In this document: piece after piece, positions 10,999 through 25,168 of the stretch
Numbering within the stretch: the stretch's first letter is position 1
How the letters are laid out: each line of letters starts with the position of its first letter
From: Pecten maximus
Taxonomy: Eukaryota
Reading direction: 5' to 3'
Length of the DNA: 64,000 nt
Assembly: GCF_902652985.1 (NCBI RefSeq)
Contig: NC_047019.1
Coordinates: forward strand, 22,816,001 to 22,880,000
Program-made: the position numbers and the translations under genes
The notes under the pieces: generated by a model
What the model was told of the DNA's origin: nothing
What the model saw: the letters and a program-made list of their open reading frames with translations, nothing else
Database searches by the model: none

Positions 10999-13735
10999 AC
11001 GGACTTTGACGAAGTTAATATAAAATTTGAATACAGTAATAATTATAATCTTTTCGAGCGAAGTTAGATTGTAATCCTTTCAATGGGAGTGGACCAGATA
11101 TATTCAGTACACTAGTACTGCAGTAAGAATTTTCGAATACGGTACCTGACTATATGCACATCCACCTGCAGAATATACACACGTGAACGAAACGTGACCT
11201 TAAATTATCCGATTCTGTAGTCCGTAGCCTTGTCTTGTCATATTAATATCAGGCGTGCTTTAATTACTAGGTCTAAACCTTGAATGAATTTGCTTGTTTT
11301 CTTTTACGTTATACATACATGTTCAGAGAGTTATTTATAATCCATATTCAGATTCAATAAAATCTCAATCCTATGATAATATAAATGTACAAAGCGTTCG
11401 ATAAGCTTTGGTTAAGCTAACGGAGCTTTAGATAATGGTGTCAAATATACCTATAGGCTATATACAGAAAAAGTCAAGGTCAGCTACAGGTAATAATAGC
11501 ACGTGATTATCAGCTTCGGGATACCCCGTCTAGCCATTGTTTGTACAACTCACAGGTGTTTTGGCAACTGCGTTATCACGGTTTATACATGTATATCATT
11601 ATAACCGGATATATACTAGTTAGGCGCTGTAGATTATTATAGTCTATATAACACACAATCATATGCTTCAAACATGGATAAATCTTAACATTTTCCAATA
11701 ATTATGATCTGCACAATGTCGGGGGTTATAATGAGAATAAGCCACTGACAATATATATTAAAATAACACAGACCTTTGGATAACATACATAATGTACCAA
11801 ATGTGTAAAATATAAGAAACATTAATGACTACGTATTTTGACGACATCGTTGTCGCTGACGATGTACGACAGAAAGAATTAGCTTGCCTAAGGGTAGTCA
11901 TTGCGTATTCCAGAGATCTGTCATTGGTTAAATATGTAAAAATATGACTAGATGCCTTTAGAAACACAAGAATGTACTATAAAGTACACTGTTAATTGCA
12001 TATTCGTGCATGATAAATAAAAGCAGAGACACATATAGACATGTAAAATTCATTGATTACCTTCGCTTCAAATACTTAGTCAACTTATTATTAAAATTAA
12101 TCGCCGAAAACACAACAATTTCTCGATACACGCGTTAGTTTACAGGCATGGTGATGAAATCAGCTGCCTGGCTGATGAAATCCTGTCTATATGTTAGCTA
12201 GAATGATTTCAGATAATTATACACAAACAATTGCCAACCATACAAAAATCAATTTAAACTGCATATATTTGTGTGTAATTCACATTACAACTAGTTCCAC
12301 TTTAAAATGCCAGACTTACCAGTACGTATATGCTGTCGATCCTGAGTCAATGTTCATTTACTTGTGAATCTGAATCCCCTGTTGTTTACAATGTGTACAC
12401 GCACGTTCTGAAATGTACATGATGTGATCATGTGTTCGCCATGTGCCTTTGTGTACATATATATATCACGTAACCTTTGACCCTGTTCCGGTAGGCTGGA
12501 CAACTCAAGCCAAATACAAGGTGACCACGCAGGGAACGCATGACCAAACTTTACCATGTACATGTATACATGCAGCTAGGTGCCCGCCAGTTGTCGGCGT
12601 GTTAGCACCACTTACGTAATTTACTAAAGGCTAAAACTGGCATGATTATCTTAATCTTTCCCTGGGTCGGAATTACACCTACAGCTTATTATAAATTCAT
12701 GTTAAGGAAAAACAGATATATAAGTAAACCTCATTGATATCCTATTGATCCTATTCAGGTCCTTAATTTGCAGTAGATAGCTATATGCAAAACTTATTTA
12801 CAAAAGTTAAATTGATATTAGAATGACTTCTTCGAGATATGCAAATTTTTATATACGTCCCTGGTAAAACTTCTCTATGAAAATATTAAGACTGTTCACA
12901 GGTTGTGCTTTCTTTTCTTTTTTCTTTTGTTGTTTTAACGTTACAATTGTGTGACACGATACAGGGGTTCCAAAATACATGTTAACTTTCCCGACTTTTT
13001 GACATTATAAACAATATATATATTACGTAAATGCCACATGGATTACATGACAGAGGGGAAGGAGAGAGCCAATTACCAGATTTTGATGATGTCATTGATC
13101 AGAAGCAATTATGACGTCATCATTTTTTGTGCTCGGTAATGGTAATGTTTTCATGTTTTATTACATTGAACTGTTTACGAAAATGTTTAGTGAGCTAATT
13201 GCTTGATCGCATTTTTTTATGCAAAAAATAATTAGGAATGGTTTTGTCACCCAGACCCCCCCCCCGAGAAATTTTGACAACCTAGTCGACCCGGACAATG
13301 TTTTTGTGACCGTACGGCCGAAAGTATTAAAAGAATTGAATTGAACCTATAGTCGCGAGTGGAGGTTATAACCAAATCGAGAGTTTAGACCGGCAACAAA
13401 ACAAAACAAATATCCTTATATGTATGGCACTACAGTACGTATTGATTAGAACAATAACATTTTATATACCATGATATATACATGTATTACTGTCTCCCAA
13501 CAACAGACATTGTATTAATGATCTACCATCCAGGGAGTGATTAATAGATTAACATATTAGGTATAAAACAAACACGAAGTTGTAAAAACGATTTGAACAT
13601 ATTGTATATGAAATAGAAAAAGAATCAATAAAAATAGAATTGTTTTGTTAATCGATAATATGCAAAATATCAAGAAGAAACACAGATTGGATTTCTCCCA
13701 TTCACAGATTTGTCTCCCGTTTTAACTGTCCAAGA

Positions 13736-13908
13736 TTTCTCTGTCAAACCCAGGATGTAATTTCTCTGTCACACCCCGGGTTTAATATCTCTGTCACACC
13801 CAGGGTATCATATCTCTGTCACACCCAAGGTATTATTTCTCTGTCACACCCAGGGTGTAATTTCTCTGTCACACATAGGGTGTAATTTCTCTGTCAACCT
13901 ATAGGGTA
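13736..13908. repeat. 25-bp tandem repeat (tttctctgtcacacccagggtgtaa) x7
   Basis: Units start at about 13736, 13761, 13786, 13811, 13836, 13861 and 13886. Confidence 0.9.
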
Positions 13909-15016
13909 TGGCATCGAACGTCTTTGCAGCAATGCAATGACGTTACGTCACCAATTCATCATGTCATTTCAGCACTGTGTTGCACTGCAAGATATTTACA
14001 TATTTTTCAAATATTTGAACTACTGAACACTGAGTAAATAGTATGACGGCGGGAAATAATAGTTCCGTACCTTGATACAATGTCAGAGAAATCTGCTAAG
14101 GACAGCTGGTGAATATAAATAAAATCTATACCTTCATTAAATGTCTAGCATCCAGAAAATGACACAAATGGTCCACGTTAATGAGAGAAGAAATATCCTC
14201 AAAAGCATAAACGGTTCATTACAGATATGTAATCAATAAAACATTGTTTAACGTTGTTAGGATGAATACAGTGCATGTTTACAACTATAACAAAATTTAT
14301 AATCCATAAGGAAATAGAATATTTCTAATTGGGATAATGATGTGGACCGTTCAACTTTGGCCGCGGTCTTAATCAACCTCGCCAAAGAAACTTACTGTAC
14401 CATTGAAATATTGTACTTTCTGGAGACTGATTTTTTCTAACCTGGTGTAAAGGTTTTTAATTATTGTTACATACATGTCACATAATCCCTTAAATATCGG
14501 TAGTCTGACATAACTCATTAAGACTGGCTTTCGTGATGGAATTGTATGTGATTTCACATATTCATATATATATCAAAGTTTAAGTCTAGTTACGAAATGC
14601 GAGTGTTTAATAGATTATCTGTGTCTGTACGTGAATCTCTCGAAGATAGGGATATACTGTTGTTACAGGTTGACGACTATATACATTATAGGTTAACACT
14701 ATTAAGTTTAAACAATATTTATTTGATAATCTGTAATACAATAAAATAAATCGAAAGTATGCAAGAGGATTTGGTAACAAGCTTAGAGCTTATGTAAAAT
14801 CGATTAACACTATTCATCACATATCAATGTCACGCCGGCACAGGTGTAATGACATTTCTTTGAAGTCACAAATATATGACGTCACACGCTTTTCTTGGTA
14901 GATTCATATCATTTTTGAGAGAAATCAATTTGAACGTTATCGCTTATTTTCTCGTGAATATGATTCATGTGATGAATAAAATCTTAAACTCGTGCCAGTA
15001 CAGTATGGGGTTTATC

Positions 15017-15953
15017 TATGGGGCGCCGTTTTACTATTTATTCCCATTTGGTGATATCGCCTATTCAAATAGGTGATATCACCTATTCAAATGAGTGATA
15101 TCACCTATTCGAATAGGTGTTATCATTTAAGAACTTTTTTAAGTGATTTCACCTATTCGAATAGGTGATATCACCTATTCGAATGAGTGATATCACCTAT
15201 TCGTTTCATTAAGTGATATCACCCATTAGAATAGGTGATATCACTTATTGAAACGAATAGGTGATATCACCAATTCGAATAGGTGATATCACTCATTCGA
15301 ATAGGTGATATCACCAATTGGAATAGGTGATATCACTTAAAAATATTCTTAGGTGATATCACCTATTCGAATAGGTGATATCACCAATTCGAATAGGTGA
15401 TATCACTTATACAATTCTTAAGTGATATCACCTATACGAATAGGTGATATCACTTATGAAATTTTATAAGTGATATCACCTATTCCAATTGGTGATATCA
15501 CCTATTCGAATGAATGATATCACCTATTCAATCAGTGATATCACCTATTCTAATAGGTGATATCACCAATTCATTTTTCAAATAAGTGATATCACCTATT
15601 CGAATTGGTGATATCACCTATTCGAATTGGTGATATCACCTATTCGTTTCAGTAAGTGATATCACCTATTCGAATGAGTGATATCACCAATTCGAATTGG
15701 TGATATCACCTATTCGTTTCAATAAGTGATATCACCTATTCGAATGAGTGATATCACCTATTCGAATGGGTGATATCACTTAATGAAACAAATAGGTGAT
15801 ATCACTTATTCGAATAGGTGATATCACTCAATCGAATAGGTGATATCACTTAAAAAAGTTCTTAAGTGATATCACCTATTCGAATAGGTGATATCACTCA
15901 TTTGAATAGGTGATATCACCAAATGGGAATAAATAGTAAAACGGCGCCCCATA
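15017..15953. mobile_element. Non-autonomous foldback/MITE-like element filled with palindromic ~22-bp subrepeats
   Basis: Long terminal inverted repeats TATGGGGCGCCGTTTTACTATTTATTCCCATTTGGTGATATC ... GATATCACCAAATGGGAATAAATAGTAAAACGGCGCCCCATA. The interior is made of dozens of ATAGGTGATATCACCTATTCGA variants. Confidence 0.85.
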
Positions 15954-15982
15954 AATATGTCATTAGCCTCAAAGCTCGTTAT

Positions 15983-16150
15983 TTAAATATTCCCGCGTTT
16001 CGCTTAGTATAGCGGGAATAATTTGTCTCTGTCGGCACGTAAATGCAGGTGTTGCACGTGCCTTGACGTCACAGTGGTTCACGTGTATCGGGTATACAGT
16101 GTGTGTGTCATTCCTAGCCGCCGCGCCGTACTGTACGGTTATGTCATATA
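15983..16150 (+). repeat. Split direct repeat A1 (168 bp; copy A2 at 20469-20636)
   Basis: Identical by eye to 20469-20636. Contains a tattcccgc/gcgggaata stem, a CRE (TGACGTCA) and CACGTG E-boxes. Confidence 0.95.
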
Positions 16151-16178
16151 ATTAAGCCAGTTATACTGTCCCCACATC

Positions 16179-19178
16179 ATGACGACTTCTACAGAAGATT
16201 TTATTACCGCCCGTGTGAAAGCGGCAGTGGAGGCCTCTCAGGAAGAGATTGTTTCAAAAATGAGTTCCGTCATTTCGCACAAGCAGGACAGTTTCGAACA
16301 TAGAATGAGTGACTGTTCCGAGGCCCATTTTTCCAAGTTACAGCAAAATATTTTATGTGGGGAGCCACACAAATTTTCCAGGAAAAGCTGTGAAGATCAG
16401 CACAAATTCAATGTGAAAGTTCGAGCCAAGTTAATGGAGGCGGAACATTTATCCACGACGGAACCACTAGCGTCAAAGGCTAAAATTTTGGAAGGTATTG
16501 GCCTAATTGACTATAGACAGAAACTTGTTAAACTAGCCGACACTTCGGATTGTGGATGGAAAGCTGTTGACGAATATATTGCGAATCCTATCGCTTCCGA
16601 TTCGGACGATGAGCGCAAGATGGATCGCGCCAGAGCCAGGGCCAACAGAAAGGCCAAGGATTCAAAACTAAAAGCCAATAAGGGAAGAGGTCGTTACACC
16701 CCTTATAGCGACCAACGTCTTCAATCCAATAATGCCACAGGGAATACCCAGGACGGTTTCAGAGGAGGTCCCCAAAGGAGTGCTATTAGCAGGCCGGGGA
16801 GCTGTTTTGCCTGTGGGAAGTTCGGACACTGGCGTGTCGATTGTCCTGCCCTGGCGGGAGGAACAGTGACGTCTGGCAGTATTAAGATAAGCAATATTTG
16901 GTTTACTAAACATGTACATATCGTAAATGACGATCAAGGCCGTAAGACAGACGACTCTATATTGATAGGTAAGAGTATCATTCAGTCAATGACGGACCAG
17001 TTAGGCGTCGCAAATGATTCAGGTCCTGAAGCTTATCGTTGCAGCGCAAATGATAGTTTTTCACAAACTTCACCTGTTGGCAGGTTGAAAGGTTGTTTTG
17101 ATTTTTGGGAGAGCACAGGCGCATGTGACGCTGTATTATCAGTTGTGAAGGATGGTTACAAGATTCCTTTTCGTGAAATTCCTCCTTCTGTTGTGTTAAT
17201 GAATAATAAGTCTTCACGGGATAATATCCCTTTCGTACAAGGTGAAATTGAAAAATTGGTCAAATTGGGCTGTGTTTCAGAGGTTTCATATGTACCTTTC
17301 GTTGTCAATCCTCTAACAGTAGCGTACGGTAAGTCGGGTAAGCCACGCCTCGTTCTAGATTGTCGGCATATCAATCTCTATTTGCATAAGTTCAAGGTCA
17401 AATTCGAGGACGGTAAAGTCGCTAGAGATATTTTTCAACAGGGCGATTTCTTGTTCACTTTCGACCTAAAATCGGCCTACCACCACATTGAAATTTTTGC
17501 TGATCACAGGAAGTTTCTTGGTTTTCATTACATTTTTGATAGCGTTACCCGTTATTTTGTGTTCAATGTGTTGCCTTTTGGAATAGCCACGGCCGGCTAT
17601 ATATTCACAAAGGTTCTCCGCGAGGTAGTGAAGCACGTGCGTGGTAGGGGTTACAAATTGATCATGTACCTTGACGATGGTATGGGCGGAGACGCCTCTG
17701 AAGGCGGCACTAGAGATGCCAGCGCATTTGTTATGCAGTCATTGATCAATTTTGGTTTTATTTTAGCGCACGAGAAGTGTCAGTGGACACCATCACAATA
17801 CGCCACGTGGTTAGGGTACACGTGGTCGATGTCTGTAGGCGTGGTCAGGGTATCGTCTGCTAGAGTAGAGCTATTGTTGGGTCAACTGTCTGACATCATG
17901 ACTCGGGTCAATGAGAAAGGTCACTATATGTTTCCTGCTAGGTATCTCGCCGGCGTAATAGGGCGTGTCATATCAATGCAAAGCGTGATCGGTTCAGTGG
18001 CGCGTTTACGCACACGTGAGTTGTATAAATGTGTATTGTCCAGGTCTAGTTGGAATGCGTACGTCATACTCAGTAGTGAGGCTCTAGAAGAAATAGCATT
18101 TTGGTCGTTGAACATTGAGAAACTGAACGAGAAAGGCTGTACTATCAAAGAAAACAGTTTTTGCAGTTCAATCGTTTGTACTGACGCGTCCGGTATTGGT
18201 TACGGGGGCTATGTTATGCCCTGTAAGAGTCCTTTGGAGGATGTTGTTGTCGATGTAGGTCAAGGTGATTACGTCGCAGATAATGACTTAGATGATTTGG
18301 CCCCATGGGCGGGATTCCCTTTGGAGGGACAAGTTTGTATGGGCGATGCCCCATGTTTCTGTTTGCCTTTGGAGGATTTGTCAAATGAGGTCAGGGCCCC
18401 TTTGGAGGGGACTTGTGAAAAATCAAGTGTTATAACGGGCACTTGGAGTGAGGATGAAAGGGTACGTAGCTCAACCTGGAGGGAGCTTGAAGGTATGAAG
18501 CGCGTCCTGTTTAGCGCTGTTGATGATATAAAAAGTCAGCACGTAAGACTGGTTACTGACAATAAGAATGTAGCCTCCATTCTTAAGGTAGGTAGTAGAA
18601 AACCCAATCTTCAAGCAGTAGCTTGTGAGGTAGTGGATTTTTGTGAGAATCACGGTGTAAGTATCAGTACTCAATGGATACCCAGACAGTTGAACAAAAC
18701 TGCAGATTGTTTGAGCAGATGTACGGATGCCGACGATTGGTCGGTTCAAAGGTGGGTTTTTGATTTTTGTGAAGTGTTATGGGAGCAGCACGATGTAGAT
18801 AGATTCTCTACAGATTATAACACAATGTGTGACAGATTTAACTCGCGCTTTTGGTGCACGGGTACTGAAGCGGTAGATTGTCTCACTGTATCATGGGGTC
18901 GGCTAAACAACTGGATAGTACCTCCCCCCAGGTTAATATGTAAGGTCATTGAAAAGATGTCAAAGGAACGGTGCCGTGGTACTCTGATAGCCCCTGTTTG
19001 GAGGTCTGCTCCATTTTGGCCTATTCTGTGTTTAAGCGAGAATAGATTCGACAGTTTTGTCGTGGATAACCGAGTATTGTCGAATAAGAATGTTACAAAA
19101 AAGGGTAGGGGTAAAAACGGCGTTTTTGGCAGAACCGTTTTACCCTTTGCCATGATCGCATTGCGTTTAGTTTTCTAA
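16179..19178 (+). CDS. Gag-RT-RNase H-DNA N6-adenine methyltransferase-like polyprotein (999 aa)
   Basis: Zinc knuckle CFACGKFGHWRVDC. RT motifs RLVLDCR, FDLKSAYHH, LPFG and YLDD. RNase H motifs TDAS, SSTWRELE, TDN and WIPRQLNKTAD. The C-terminal DIRS MT-like region includes DVDRF and WIVPPP. Confidence 0.95.
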   Translation: MTTSTEDFITARVKAAVEASQEEIVSKMSSVISHKQDSFEHRMSDCSEAHFSKLQQNILCGEPHKFSRKSCEDQHKFNVKVRAKLMEAEHLSTTEPLASKAKILEGIGLIDYRQKLVKLADTSDCGWKAVDEYIANPIASDSDDERKMDRARARANRKAKDSKLKANKGRGRYTPYSDQRLQSNNATGNTQDGFRGGPQRSAISRPGSCFACGKFGHWRVDCPALAGGTVTSGSIKISNIWFTKHVHIVNDDQGRKTDDSILIGKSIIQSMTDQLGVANDSGPEAYRCSANDSFSQTSPVGRLKGCFDFWESTGACDAVLSVVKDGYKIPFREIPPSVVLMNNKSSRDNIPFVQGEIEKLVKLGCVSEVSYVPFVVNPLTVAYGKSGKPRLVLDCRHINLYLHKFKVKFEDGKVARDIFQQGDFLFTFDLKSAYHHIEIFADHRKFLGFHYIFDSVTRYFVFNVLPFGIATAGYIFTKVLREVVKHVRGRGYKLIMYLDDGMGGDASEGGTRDASAFVMQSLINFGFILAHEKCQWTPSQYATWLGYTWSMSVGVVRVSSARVELLLGQLSDIMTRVNEKGHYMFPARYLAGVIGRVISMQSVIGSVARLRTRELYKCVLSRSSWNAYVILSSEALEEIAFWSLNIEKLNEKGCTIKENSFCSSIVCTDASGIGYGGYVMPCKSPLEDVVVDVGQGDYVADNDLDDLAPWAGFPLEGQVCMGDAPCFCLPLEDLSNEVRAPLEGTCEKSSVITGTWSEDERVRSSTWRELEGMKRVLFSAVDDIKSQHVRLVTDNKNVASILKVGSRKPNLQAVACEVVDFCENHGVSISTQWIPRQLNKTADCLSRCTDADDWSVQRWVFDFCEVLWEQHDVDRFSTDYNTMCDRFNSRFWCTGTEAVDCLTVSWGRLNNWIVPPPRLICKVIEKMSKERCRGTLIAPVWRSAPFWPILCLSENRFDSFVVDNRVLSNKNVTKKGRGKNGVFGRTVLPFAMIALRLVF

Positions 19179-19229
19179 ACCGGGTTATTTTTCACACACG
19201 TATATATATATTTGTTATTTGTTTAACAG

Positions 19230-20242
19230 GCATAGGACTACATACCACAATCGACCAAGCGATTAAGGACTCGGGCGTTGTAGAAGGTTCTTCACTGCAT
19301 AAACACGTCGTCGGTTTAAAGAGCAGGATACTTCAGTGCAAGAGTGACAGCACGAACTATAAATACTTCGGTGCTTTTAAACGATGGGAGCGTTTCATAA
19401 CAGCGCAGGGATTTCCGGCAGTACCAGCCAATTCCATACACATATGTTTGTACCTGAACAGCTTATTAACTAAAGGATCCTCATTTGCAGTGGTTTCTTC
19501 GGCAGTGTATGCTATCAAGTGGGCTCATAGCTTGAACGGATTGTCGGATCCAACAACAAACATTTTTGTAAAAAATCTTTTAGAAGCTTCAAAACGCATA
19601 GCGAAGAAACCTGTGTGTAAAAAGGACTCTGTTACCAGTGGCATTTTGATTAGGCTTTGTGACATTTTTTCAGAATCTAGCGACTTGTTAGTTGTCAGGG
19701 ATTTAACCATGATTTTGCTTAGCTTTTCAGGATTTTTGCGCTATAACGAGCTCAGCAATTTGCATTGTTCAGATGTTAAGCTATCGGAGAGCTATTTCAC
19801 ACTTGTAGTCCGTAAGAGTAAAACGGACCAATATCGGTTCGGCAGTGAGATTATTATCAGTAAGGGTGAAACTACGGCGTGTCCGTACGCCATGTTGATG
19901 AAATATATTCGTATAGCTCGCATTGACATCGAGTCAGATGATTTCTTGTTTAAACCAATTTATAGATCGGGCTCAGTTTGTGGTTTGATTCACAAAAATA
20001 AACCGCTCAGTTACACGGGAGCTAAGGAAGCTATCCTGAAACGGCTGAATTTGGTTTCGGAGGGAAAGAATTTCGGTTTACATTCTTTGGGATCAGGAGG
20101 GGCCAGCATGGCGGCCAACAATGGCGTTAATGATCGCTGTTTTAAGCGCCACGGGCGTTGGCGTAGTGAGTCTAGCAAGGACGGATACATCGCTGATTCT
20201 ATCGAGAGACGGTTAAATGTGACGCAAAAATTAGGTATCTGA
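19230..20242 (+). CDS. Tyrosine recombinase of the retrotransposon (probably a spliced second exon; HxxR Arg mutated)
   Basis: The frame is open from the acceptor at 19229 to the stop at 20242. Catalytic motifs: FLRYNEL (R), KSKTDQ (K), HSLG (HxxR changed to HxxG), HGRW and DGYI (Y). The ORF-track start at 19448 is a TTG, and the first in-frame ATG is far downstream. Confidence 0.9.
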
Positions 20243-20398
20243 AATCAAAATATATACAGGCAGTTAAACGTGACGCCTAATGTTTTAGACATCGCGTGTG
20301 TTGTATACGACGTATTCACTTAGTTATTTAGGATAACTATACACGTTTGATATATATATATATATATTTTCTACTCGTACTTTCCCCTTTCTTTGTTA

Positions 20399-20468
20399 TT
20401 CCTATACACGGCGGGCTAGTCGGCAAATGGAATTTGCGTGTTTGGTGTTGTATTAGTATAGAGGAGAC
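20399..20468 (+). repeat. Split direct repeat B1 (70 bp; copy B2 at 20959-21028)
   Basis: ttcctatacacggcgggctag...gaggagac is identical at both positions. B1 directly abuts A2, reproducing the circle junction. Confidence 0.95.
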
Positions 20469-21132
20469 TTAAATATTCCCGCGTTTCGCTTAGTATAGCG
20501 GGAATAATTTGTCTCTGTCGGCACGTAAATGCAGGTGTTGCACGTGCCTTGACGTCACAGTGGTTCACGTGTATCGGGTATACAGTGTGTGTGTCATTCC
20601 TAGCCGCCGCGCCGTACTGTACGGTTATGTCATATACTTTTTCTGTGTAGTTATATGATTTCTAGTGTCAATGCTGTCACAGTAGTTCATATTTGTCTGG
20701 CCTATAAATCCAGCATATGAAATCTTAAGCATTGAGGGCTGGTGCACCTCCTGCTCTCCCGTAAGACAGGAGTTTCAGGTTGGGTGGCTCGCTTGATTTC
20801 ACATAGGCCATATAGGGTTAAAGTTCAGGCTAGTTTTAGGTCAATGTTATCATAGGGATGATTTCGGTGTTCCTTTAGATTTGGCTATTCATTTCGCATC
20901 AATGTATTTGTATCATATGAAATTGGCATGAATGTTGCTTTTCTGAATAAATTCCGGCTTCCTATACACGGCGGGCTAGTCGGCAAATGGAATTTGCGTG
21001 TTTGGTGTTGTATTAGTATAGAGGAGACATATCAACTTCTTGACACCACGAAAAGATACTCTATATTCTGATAACAACATCTAAATGTATCATAAACAGT
21101 GAGCAAGTGAACAGCATATTAAAATATTAATT

Positions 21133-23432: not shown

Positions 23433-25168
23433 ATGAAAGTGTCGCCAACCCTTTGTTATTTGGTATTCCTAGTAGTGCTATGTGGCGGTGCTTCAGGAAC
23501 AATGGAGTATAAGGCAGGTAAGTAATAGATATATTTATTTTGATTAATAACTCAATAAATTGGGACTGCTGCATGGTATAAAGGGAGTGGTGTATCATGT
23601 GTACCCTGTATTGTATAAGTTATTTTGGTATGCATAGAAACCAAAAAATGTTGAGATCATAATTATCAAAACTCTCATTAACATGGTAAGCAAAATACTC
23701 GTGCCTGACATCGCAGAAATCATTTGTGTTGTAAGGAAGCATATAAGTAATGGCTCCATAACCGCATAGTTATAATAGAAATGGGCATGATACCTAGTGC
23801 GCTTTTCAGAGCAGACATACAGCCGTTCTTGAAACGGAAGTAGTTCCCTTTCTTAATCATCTATATGTGTTTTGTGCAATTTTCCTTAAAAAAATCGAGA
23901 TGAACAAAGATAAGGGAGATGTTTCCAGCTATGTTAATTTCTAATAGTCGTTGGCTTTAAGAAATGTTTCCTTTTTTCTGTTGGTGATCTGCTATTTTCT
24001 ATTTTTCGATAGGTGATTATGAAAGGCCGTTCATGTCAAAAACGAAATACATTTAACGCGTTAGCATTTAACGCGTTAAACACATTTAACGCGTTAAACA
24101 TAACATTTAACACGTTAAAACTAGTTTTAACGCGTTAAGATTTTTTTATTAACGCGTTAAGTTGTAGGAATATTTACTGTCATCAATGTTGCCATGGCAG
24201 CCGACCAGATAGACGAACTATCGACAAGTACTTGTAGTAGGCTGATGGATGTTGGAGTGATAAATACAGTCTCTACATCTCGTTTTCTGTAAACTGCATT
24301 TATAACATGGTATATTGTGAGATGTTCTGTATTATCTCATCAATGTTCAAAGATGACAAAACTACCAAATCACTGAACAAAATGCCACCTTCGTGTCGAT
24401 GAGTGCATTTTAAATGTTATGTTTAATGCGTTAAATGCTAACGCGTTAAAAGTATCTCGTTTTTGACATGAACGGCCTTATATAGGTGATCAACTCTTTG
24501 CTTTGTGTTATCAAAGTTTATGCTTTAGCCACGCCTTTCAATAAAATTAAATGATGATATGTTTTTCCAATTTCTTGATTGCGTAATTGATTTCAAATGA
24601 TTTTTAAGAAAATATTTATTTTACGTGACATGACATTCAAAGTATGGAATGTATTCTCGCTGTCAATGGAACCAAAACACGAGTACCAGATAACACGGTC
24701 AAGTTAATTGTCATACCGCGATGAACCTTCTATTGCATCAGCGTATACATAAACAGGTATTAGGTAAAGTTGGATAACATGATTCTGAAGTATGATATTG
24801 GTATGCCCTATCTAGTTGGTTCTAATGGATTCAAATCTATTGAGGGATTGCTTTAACCAAATGTTACATGAACTAGCTTTTCTTTCTGTTTTGTCTTGTA
24901 CTCAAAGCTCAATTGCTGGTGTTCTAGGAACAATGGAAAGCAAACATTTCATTTTGATCATCTTTTCACTACATAAATTGAACTGGAAAAAAATGTAATT
25001 ATCATACGTATATGTATTGTATCATGATAAATGCATGTAACTAACTAACTTTATTTCGCAAAATGTATTTTCGTTTGGATTGCGAAGACAGCCGATCAAA
25101 GTTTCAAACACAGCAAAACCAAAGTACTGGCAAGGAAGTAAACAAGGAATTAAATCATGTTCTTTTTT

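Follow-up and report, generated by a model that had tools for sequence, protein, structure and literature searches.

Study of a 64,000-nucleotide (nt) stretch of Pecten maximus DNA (contig NC_047019.1, positions 22,816,001 to 22,880,000; this whole stretch is called the window, and its own numbering is used throughout) revealed a complete PAT-like tyrosine recombinase (YR) retrotransposon at 15983-21031, with one gag-pol frame and a separate YR frame. We consider it likely that pol is lost from its RNA at an AT..AG join, which gives Gag, and that the same acceptor is used, at low frequency, by a conserved GT donor located further upstream, which would give a Gag(1-105)-recombinase. The join of 16886 to 19230 is itself present in sequencing contigs and is very probably of spliceosomal origin; the GT donor at 16494, the join of which was not observed, probably yields a minor Gag(1-105)-YR protein, judging from its conservation. 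The conserved non-G donor at 16886 is both the better supported and the more surprising of the two sites.

The original prediction, made from the letters of the window alone, had proposed two products, Gag-Pol from unspliced RNA and a Gag-tagged recombinase from RNA spliced at 16494. Its description of the sites is correct: gag starts at the ATG at 16179, exon 1 up to 16494 comprises 105 codons plus one base (phase 1) and ends at GAAG|GTATTG, both paths read E-G-I-G-L, and, because 19230 falls on the middle position of a YR codon, the exons total 442 amino acids. As it had stated, the YR frame has no ATG before its core: the first in-frame one is at 19709 and leaves 177 amino acids before the stop. 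The removal of pol as an intron was borne out by the join to 19230, but the join seen uses 16886|16887 (AAG|ATAAG), a second donor that had been overlooked, in place of 16494. The Gag-only product had also been missed; since the observed AT join gives Gag and a stop, there would be three products rather than two. The features concerned are the following.

16179..19178, + strand: single gag-pol frame of 999 amino acids, with Gag, zinc knuckle, reverse transcriptase (RT), RNase H-like domain and Dam-like methyltransferase
16492..16502, + strand: upstream canonical GT donor, cut 16494|16495, phase 1; would give Gag(1-105)-YR, 442 amino acids; use not observed
16803..16844, + strand: CCHC zinc knuckle of Gag, full CCHC motif
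16884..16894, + strand: non-GT donor AAG|ATAAG, cut 16886|16887, phase 0; joint in runs X2 and X10
16887..19229, + strand: AT..AG intron of 2343 nt containing all of pol; joint 16884 to 19228 with a 2-base slide
19210..19229, + strand: pyrimidine tract and CAG acceptor, 51 nt 3′ of the pol stop
19230..20242, + strand: tyrosine recombinase exon (Phage_integrase, E 3e-5); first ATG only at codon 160
19233..19235, + strand: TAG ending Gag (K-A-stop) in the AT-spliced form; RefSeq model P0237 has the same ending

The AT..AG join in contigs, genomic copies and gene models

Four runs from four studies (X1, X2, X9 and X10), in the form of assembled contigs presumed to derive from RNA, were compared with the window over 15975-20468. 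Contigs of X2 and X10, i.e. of two studies, join 16884 to 19228; a slide of two bases makes this 16886|19230 and defines an AT..AG intron. Neither GT nor GC is found at +1/+2 of the 16887-19229 segment, which begins with AT in the window copy and in five siblings. The X2 contigs fork exactly at 16886, not at 16494, with depths of 6.2 for the joined form, 9.2 for the unjoined form and 14.4 downstream; the joined contig of X10 (depth 25.3) continues through YR to 20428, so there is no early end. Being in phase 0, the join yields Gag(236)-Ala-stop and leaves YR out of frame.

The joined contigs match the haplotype of one sibling copy, L032 (G000:C15:21370500-21377200), at 7 of 7 listed YR-side variants, five of which are private to it among the five siblings, and contigs of X2, X9 and X10 carry L032 variants together with its internal deletion. 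This copy is unspliced in the DNA, has an internal deletion in pol, and its acceptor is AAG rather than CAG; pol precedes the acceptor in it, as in all seven same-family genomic copies found. Another joint present in three runs, 17735 to 18314, was rejected as a splice, as it corresponds to the DNA deletion of L032. Within pol there are strong canonical GT donors (16969, 17329 and 18588) which, unlike the AT site, are unjoined in the four runs.

The same end points are found in a genomic copy of a sister family, the Gag of which is about 37% identical to that of the window family. Locus L058 (G000:C1:1842450-1849150) is L061 (99% identity) minus exactly the 2085-nt AT..AG stretch, from homologous donor to homologous acceptor, and it keeps all its repeats; it is thus an intron-less non-autonomous copy, which looks like a retroposed spliced RNA. 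Because it lacks the intron and has intact repeats, spliced RNA can apparently be reverse-transcribed and inserted. Four other deletions in these elements (L017, L032, L056 and L230) end at unrelated places; L056, L017/L210 and L230, where deletions at unrelated points bring Gag near YR, were accordingly rejected as splice traces.

Gene models provide a further indication. RefSeq model P0237 is identical to the L032 Gag at 236/236 residues and then reads A-stop where the DNA continues I-S-N, although its source may be the RNA data that also underlie the contigs. A model from a second scallop species, P0250, ends K-A-stop and is either a spliced model or a processed copy. Sea urchin isoform models P0263 and P0384 end at the non-G donor (...EK-stop and ...EKIQH-stop), as does mussel model P0261 (...KIQM-stop); these endings possibly reflect alternative cuts.

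Conservation of the non-G donor and of the acceptor

The donor scan was given 37 families, of which 33 had a recognisable knuckle. No more than 220 nt from the knuckle, 26 of these 33 families have the motif xG|xT(A/G)AG(T/C), where 0.22 would be expected by chance; the row for L047 is from a copy that appears rearranged at the donor. The base at +1 is A in 19 of the 26 motifs, T in five, C in one and G in only one, versus 21/57 for G in the pol background. Columns left free by the pattern also match U1 (A at -2 in 24/26, A at +7 in 23/26, T at +8 in 14/26), the AT donor pairs with U1 at 7-9 of 11 positions, and ATAAGT and ATGAGT both occur. Across families the motif is kept as a nucleotide motif in different reading frames. 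In the proteins, 148 database Gags were examined (two of the top 150 were dropped as repeat proteins) and 111 had a knuckle: [KQE]-[ILM]-S follows it in 62 of the 111, and valine, the residue that a GT donor would specify, in none, a count that is biased because the profile ranking the hits already held the motif.

The acceptor predicted at 19229 (...gtttaacag|G) is real: it ranks third of 288 AG sites, and its phase relative to YR is conserved. A phase 1 acceptor in YR with a Gag-frame stop within four codons occurs in 13 of the 14 fused-frame families, L113 being the one that misses, for a background of 24%; TAG, TAA and TGA are all used as the Gag-frame stop.

U1 itself is of the ordinary kind: among 30 genomic copies read, 29 have a canonical 5′ end (one was not parsed, and 12 more fell outside the set), and no variant U1 matching AT was found among these 30. 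U12-type introns have an RTATCC donor and a conserved TCCTTAAC branch site; here the donor is HTRAGT, and a U12 branch site is not common to the acceptors.

In ten split-frame relatives (L064, L065, L067, L069, L117, L141, L147, L163, L176 and L183) pol overlaps gag and mostly has a methionine in its first few codons; their non-G donor, mostly in phase 1 of the pol frame, is found close to where gag stops. Relatives with an animal-type YR (L181-L188) were met in contigs labelled as bacterial or archaeal metagenome-assembled genomes, likely through host contamination.

The upstream GT donor and the probable Gag-recombinase fusion

Taken alone, the 16494 donor is unremarkable, with rank 22 among 267 GT sites scored on a weight table. 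It is its conservation, like that of the acceptor, which lifts it above chance. At the homologous glycine, 19 of 20 families use GGT (21 were given and one was missed by the pattern), whereas GGT makes up 233/637 (37%) in the background and 6/19 and 3/20 at two control glycines; eleven other families, without glycine at this column, are omitted from the count. Donor variants include GTAAG and GTGAG. The residue after the donor glycine is leucine in 2 of 88 proteins only, although neighbouring positions of the helix are mostly leucine. Alignment of relatives thus favours the predicted donor at synonymous sites; on the other hand, no contig joins 16494 to 19230 in the four runs. As to the peptide said to be duplicated across the junction, GIGL is exact only in this family and its nearest sister, with G-hydrophobic-x-L/I elsewhere, and part of this likeness arises because the Gag-frame stop codon overlaps YR codons 2-3.

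Of 83 long hits, seven public models of 407-469 amino acids have the same glutamate as the point where Gag passes into YR; they are predictions and come from four ENA, two sponge and one amphioxus record. A Mytilus Gag-YR model, P0062, joins inside RT and was left out of this count. A search for Gag(1-105) in proteins of 264-840 amino acids, a weak one with 23 candidates, gave nothing, and a scan of viral contigs found no relative. YR codons 4-28 look translated since they differ most at third positions (0.44/0.39/0.72 for the three codon positions).

Six families without the glycine (L067, L069, L126, L141, L163 and L183) have separate gag and pol frames, and their non-G donor is in phase 1 of the pol frame; together with the phase 1 acceptor candidate of these six, it would give a different way of reading YR in frame, an alternative that L064, L065 and L159 do not follow.

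The structure model of Gag (mean predicted local distance difference test, pLDDT, 83.6) has helices at 3-61, 69-91 and 96-122, without PDB match at E<=0.001. The 16494 donor cuts the last predicted helix, which the start of YR, G-hydrophobic-x-L in the families checked, could complete. Three copies of Gag(1-105) were modelled as a parallel self-associating helix bundle with a score of 0.48, the best control scoring 0.00 (run agreement at least 67%, pLDDT at least 63). In the calibration, which unlike the trimer did not concern three copies, 21 of 30 solved pairs reached the mark used, against 0 of 23 single chains (eukaryotes 17/29, animals 7/16, single chains 0/30). The model supports self-binding of Gag(1-105) as a coiled coil, and the proposal that the N-terminal helix loads the recombinase into particles is consistent with it.

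Proposed mechanism and alternatives

We propose that one acceptor and two donors lead to three products. Unspliced RNA would serve as genome and as Gag-Pol mRNA, the AT donor would give Gag plus one residue and a stop, and the weaker GT donor a little recombinase; through its Gag-derived coiled coil, this protein would co-assemble with Gag and enter particles. Splicing would be throttled, so that unspliced RNA survives, because the AT donor pairs with normal U1 nearly everywhere except at +1. The Gag mRNA would escape junction-dependent decay because its stop is just past the junction. A broader view, to which we give an even chance, is that a whole branch of animal PAT-like elements, with members in sponges, corals, molluscs, echinoderms and amphioxus, maintains a U1-perfect donor with +1 selected against G as a splicing rheostat versus an ordinary donor; competition for one acceptor would then set the levels of Gag, Gag-Pol and Gag-tagged recombinase.

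Several observations weigh against the two-donor scheme. As regards the contigs, X1 and X9 show the unjoined form only, the 16494 to 19230 join is found in 0 of 4 runs, the X2 contig is unbroken across 16494, and a major third form would hardly fit the X2 depths; moreover, the runs are contigs and not reads, none of them recorded as RNA, and were taken as RNA by guess and compared without a silent control stretch. In the genomes, a copy with the 16494 join is absent among 40 + 30 loci of the own genome and 41 foreign Gag-plus-YR loci. As regards conservation, the non-G motif is absent in 7 of the 33 families, the donor glycine is lacking in the eleven families mentioned above, and fused-frame L104, which lacks it too, still has the acceptor; since the families are related (the fused clade of 14 rows has a support of 100/100), family counts overstate their independence. 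The profile that ranked the protein hits already contained both motifs. An intron-side control also has some third-position excess (0.56/0.50/0.68). Finally, there are further phase 1 GT sites (16969, and +5 of the AT motif), and a methionine near YR codon 29 in most database YRs, which bring us to the alternatives.

A first one, in our opinion unlikely, is that the AT splice is real but that YR is made through another phase 1 cut, at the GT at +5/+6 of the AT motif or downstream (e.g. 16969), giving a full Gag-YR that includes the knuckle. Weak non-canonical sites can be cleaved at -1, +1 and +5, according to passages of PMC6280755; a GT at +5, in phase 1, is found in 25 of the 26 non-G motifs, and several families have a phase 1 GT 64-85 nt downstream. 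However, U1 pairing by itself accounts for +5/+6, the +5 GT is absent from the window copy, and at FANCC-type sites +5 splicing was not seen (same passages). The downstream GTs vary in position and are absent in L036, L038 and L051. No joint of either kind was found in the four runs, and this explanation leaves the conserved 16494 donor without a role.

Rather improbable as well is that ribosomes on the AT-spliced RNA reinitiate after the Gag stop, at an internal methionine of YR, and make the recombinase without a Gag tag. The AT-spliced form is indeed the only spliced form seen in the runs, 66 of 83 database YRs have a methionine in the codon 29 region, and M160 is invariant in 52 sequences. 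But the codon 29 methionine is absent in the window family, L036 and L061, which still have near-identical copies, a start at codon 160 would lose invariant residues S38-P107, and YR codons 4-28 look protein-coding.

Two more possibilities seem to us very remote. ADAR could edit the A at +1, the commonest base there (19/26), to inosine and thereby create a GU-like donor, so that editing would control splicing. Yet the T or C present at +1 in 6 of 26 families, and leucine in 18 of the 62 proteins, are not editable to G; A>G at 16887 was not seen in the unspliced contigs of X2 and X9, and the local fold is ordinary (z = -0.33). Just as hard to believe is that the AT..AG join is a template switch or a deletion at a microhomology of 2-3 bases, the motifs being protein constraints. 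It is true that AG stands on both sides of the join (AAG in L032) and that other deletions exist (L017, L032, L056 and L230), one of them also in contigs. But the two end points recur unchanged in two families whose Gags are about 37% alike, and in contigs of two studies, with the ends of the four other deletions at unrelated places; the nucleotide motif is preserved in different reading frames, and valine is never used where isoleucine, leucine and methionine are. A -1 frameshift into YR was rejected because of a stop just upstream in the YR frame (window family, L058), as was, from the sequence, cleavage at -1, since the third frame closes after 11 codons.

Structure and classification of the element

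The two-donor scheme, which we retain, concerns an element whose ends are defined by split direct repeats.

15983..16153, + strand: split direct repeat A1 (element 5′ end), 171 nt, 99% identical to 20469-20639
20399..20639, + strand: internal repeats B1 (20399-20471) and A2 (20469-20639), overlapping by 3 nt
20959..21031, + strand: split direct repeat B2 (element 3′ end)

The A1-B1A2-B2 arrangement is likewise present in L058, L061 and L038. RT and YR are on the same strand, and a DDE integrase is absent; the zinc knuckle of Gag separates Pat1 from Toc and Kangaroo. These features agree with the original classification as PAT-like. Inverted terminal repeats with an internal complementary region, as in DIRS1, were not found in the element: its repeats are direct, and the inverted repeats listed nearby belong to an upstream satellite. 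The gag-pol frame matches RVT_1 (E 2e-14), zf-CCHC (6e-4), Dam (4e-4) and RVT_3 (4e-3), the last two below the cut-off. A methyltransferase after RNase H, which separates PAT from Ngaro, is represented by the Dam match only (amino acids 850-929, 20.6 bits against a cut-off of 28.1), which is weak. By structure, the element fits the Pat1-like definition, as given in passages of PMC4157794, with weak support from the methyltransferase; the tree of families contains only loci gathered in this analysis.

The window copy is probably dead, in a family that was active until recently, because the catalytic H-x-x-R motif of its YR, likely inactive, reads H-x-x-G and its non-GT donor carries C at +6, a position with T in five sibling copies. 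The genome carries at least 122 YR matches, from many families. Directly upstream of the element there is a foldback-like element (15013-15957), in which 95-nt inverted arms surround about 37 copies of a 22-nt palindromic unit; copies of sibling families (L037, L052, L058 and L061) likewise adjoin tandem arrays. Small tandem arrays, of 25 nt and of 15-18 nt, are also present in the window, at 13735-13896 and 24045-24138.

Comparison with known systems

Retroviruses and errantiviruses express env, and foamy viruses pol, from spliced RNAs. The window element resembles them in that gag-pol sequence is taken out as an intron to give access to a gene further downstream; it differs from them in that this gene is a tyrosine recombinase, predicted to carry 105 amino acids of Gag, and in that there is no envelope.

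Parallels also exist among Ty1/copia elements, where alternative splicing gives a subgenomic Gag RNA, as described in passages on shGAG of Arabidopsis EVD (PMC5580714) and on barley BARE1 (PMC3735527). There too, a spliced RNA from a single gag-pol frame encodes Gag alone, and it sets the excess of Gag, though the window element is not itself a copia. In copia, however, splicing acts around the protease region, with a coupling to premature termination in EVD, whereas the intron of the window element takes in all of pol, has a non-GT donor, and ends at an acceptor that also serves the recombinase exon. In Pat1-like elements of echinoderms (order DIRS, passages of PMC4157794) gag and pol do not form one frame as they do here. 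The passages of PMC4157794, PMC3266345, PMC6681497, PMC9210276 and PMC7192593 describe no splicing scheme for PAT elements, nor do those of PMC9341512 describe the present one, and in the literature covered we found expression of an ATG-less recombinase and the Gag/Pol balance of YR elements not addressed; the scheme offers a testable three-product model with exact junctions. The literature searched holds no report of the two-donor scheme, with older YR/DIRS reviews, Repbase notes and supplements outside its coverage, where a prior mention is possible.

With respect to the donor, passages of PMC6280755 report splicing of AT, TT and CT donors in human reporters, provided that the remaining U1 pairing is complete, rank non-canonical donors as GC>TT>AT>GA>GG>CT, and state that AT-AG hybrids are thought to be U2-type. 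The donor described here is like these in having a full U1 match except at +1. The human sites, by the same source, are rare and mostly secondary sites or disease alleles, whereas here a transposon lineage conserves the non-G base, and the joined form is a major one: an almost invariant donor G is avoided in many lineages, and yet removal of the intron reaches a substantial share. If true, this would constitute a natural, conserved and efficiently spliced class of AT/TT/CT-AG introns processed by ordinary U1, with implications for the fidelity of the spliceosome and for the leakiness of some human +1 mutations. Software for alignment or gene prediction would miss or mis-model such transcripts if it insists on GT or GC.

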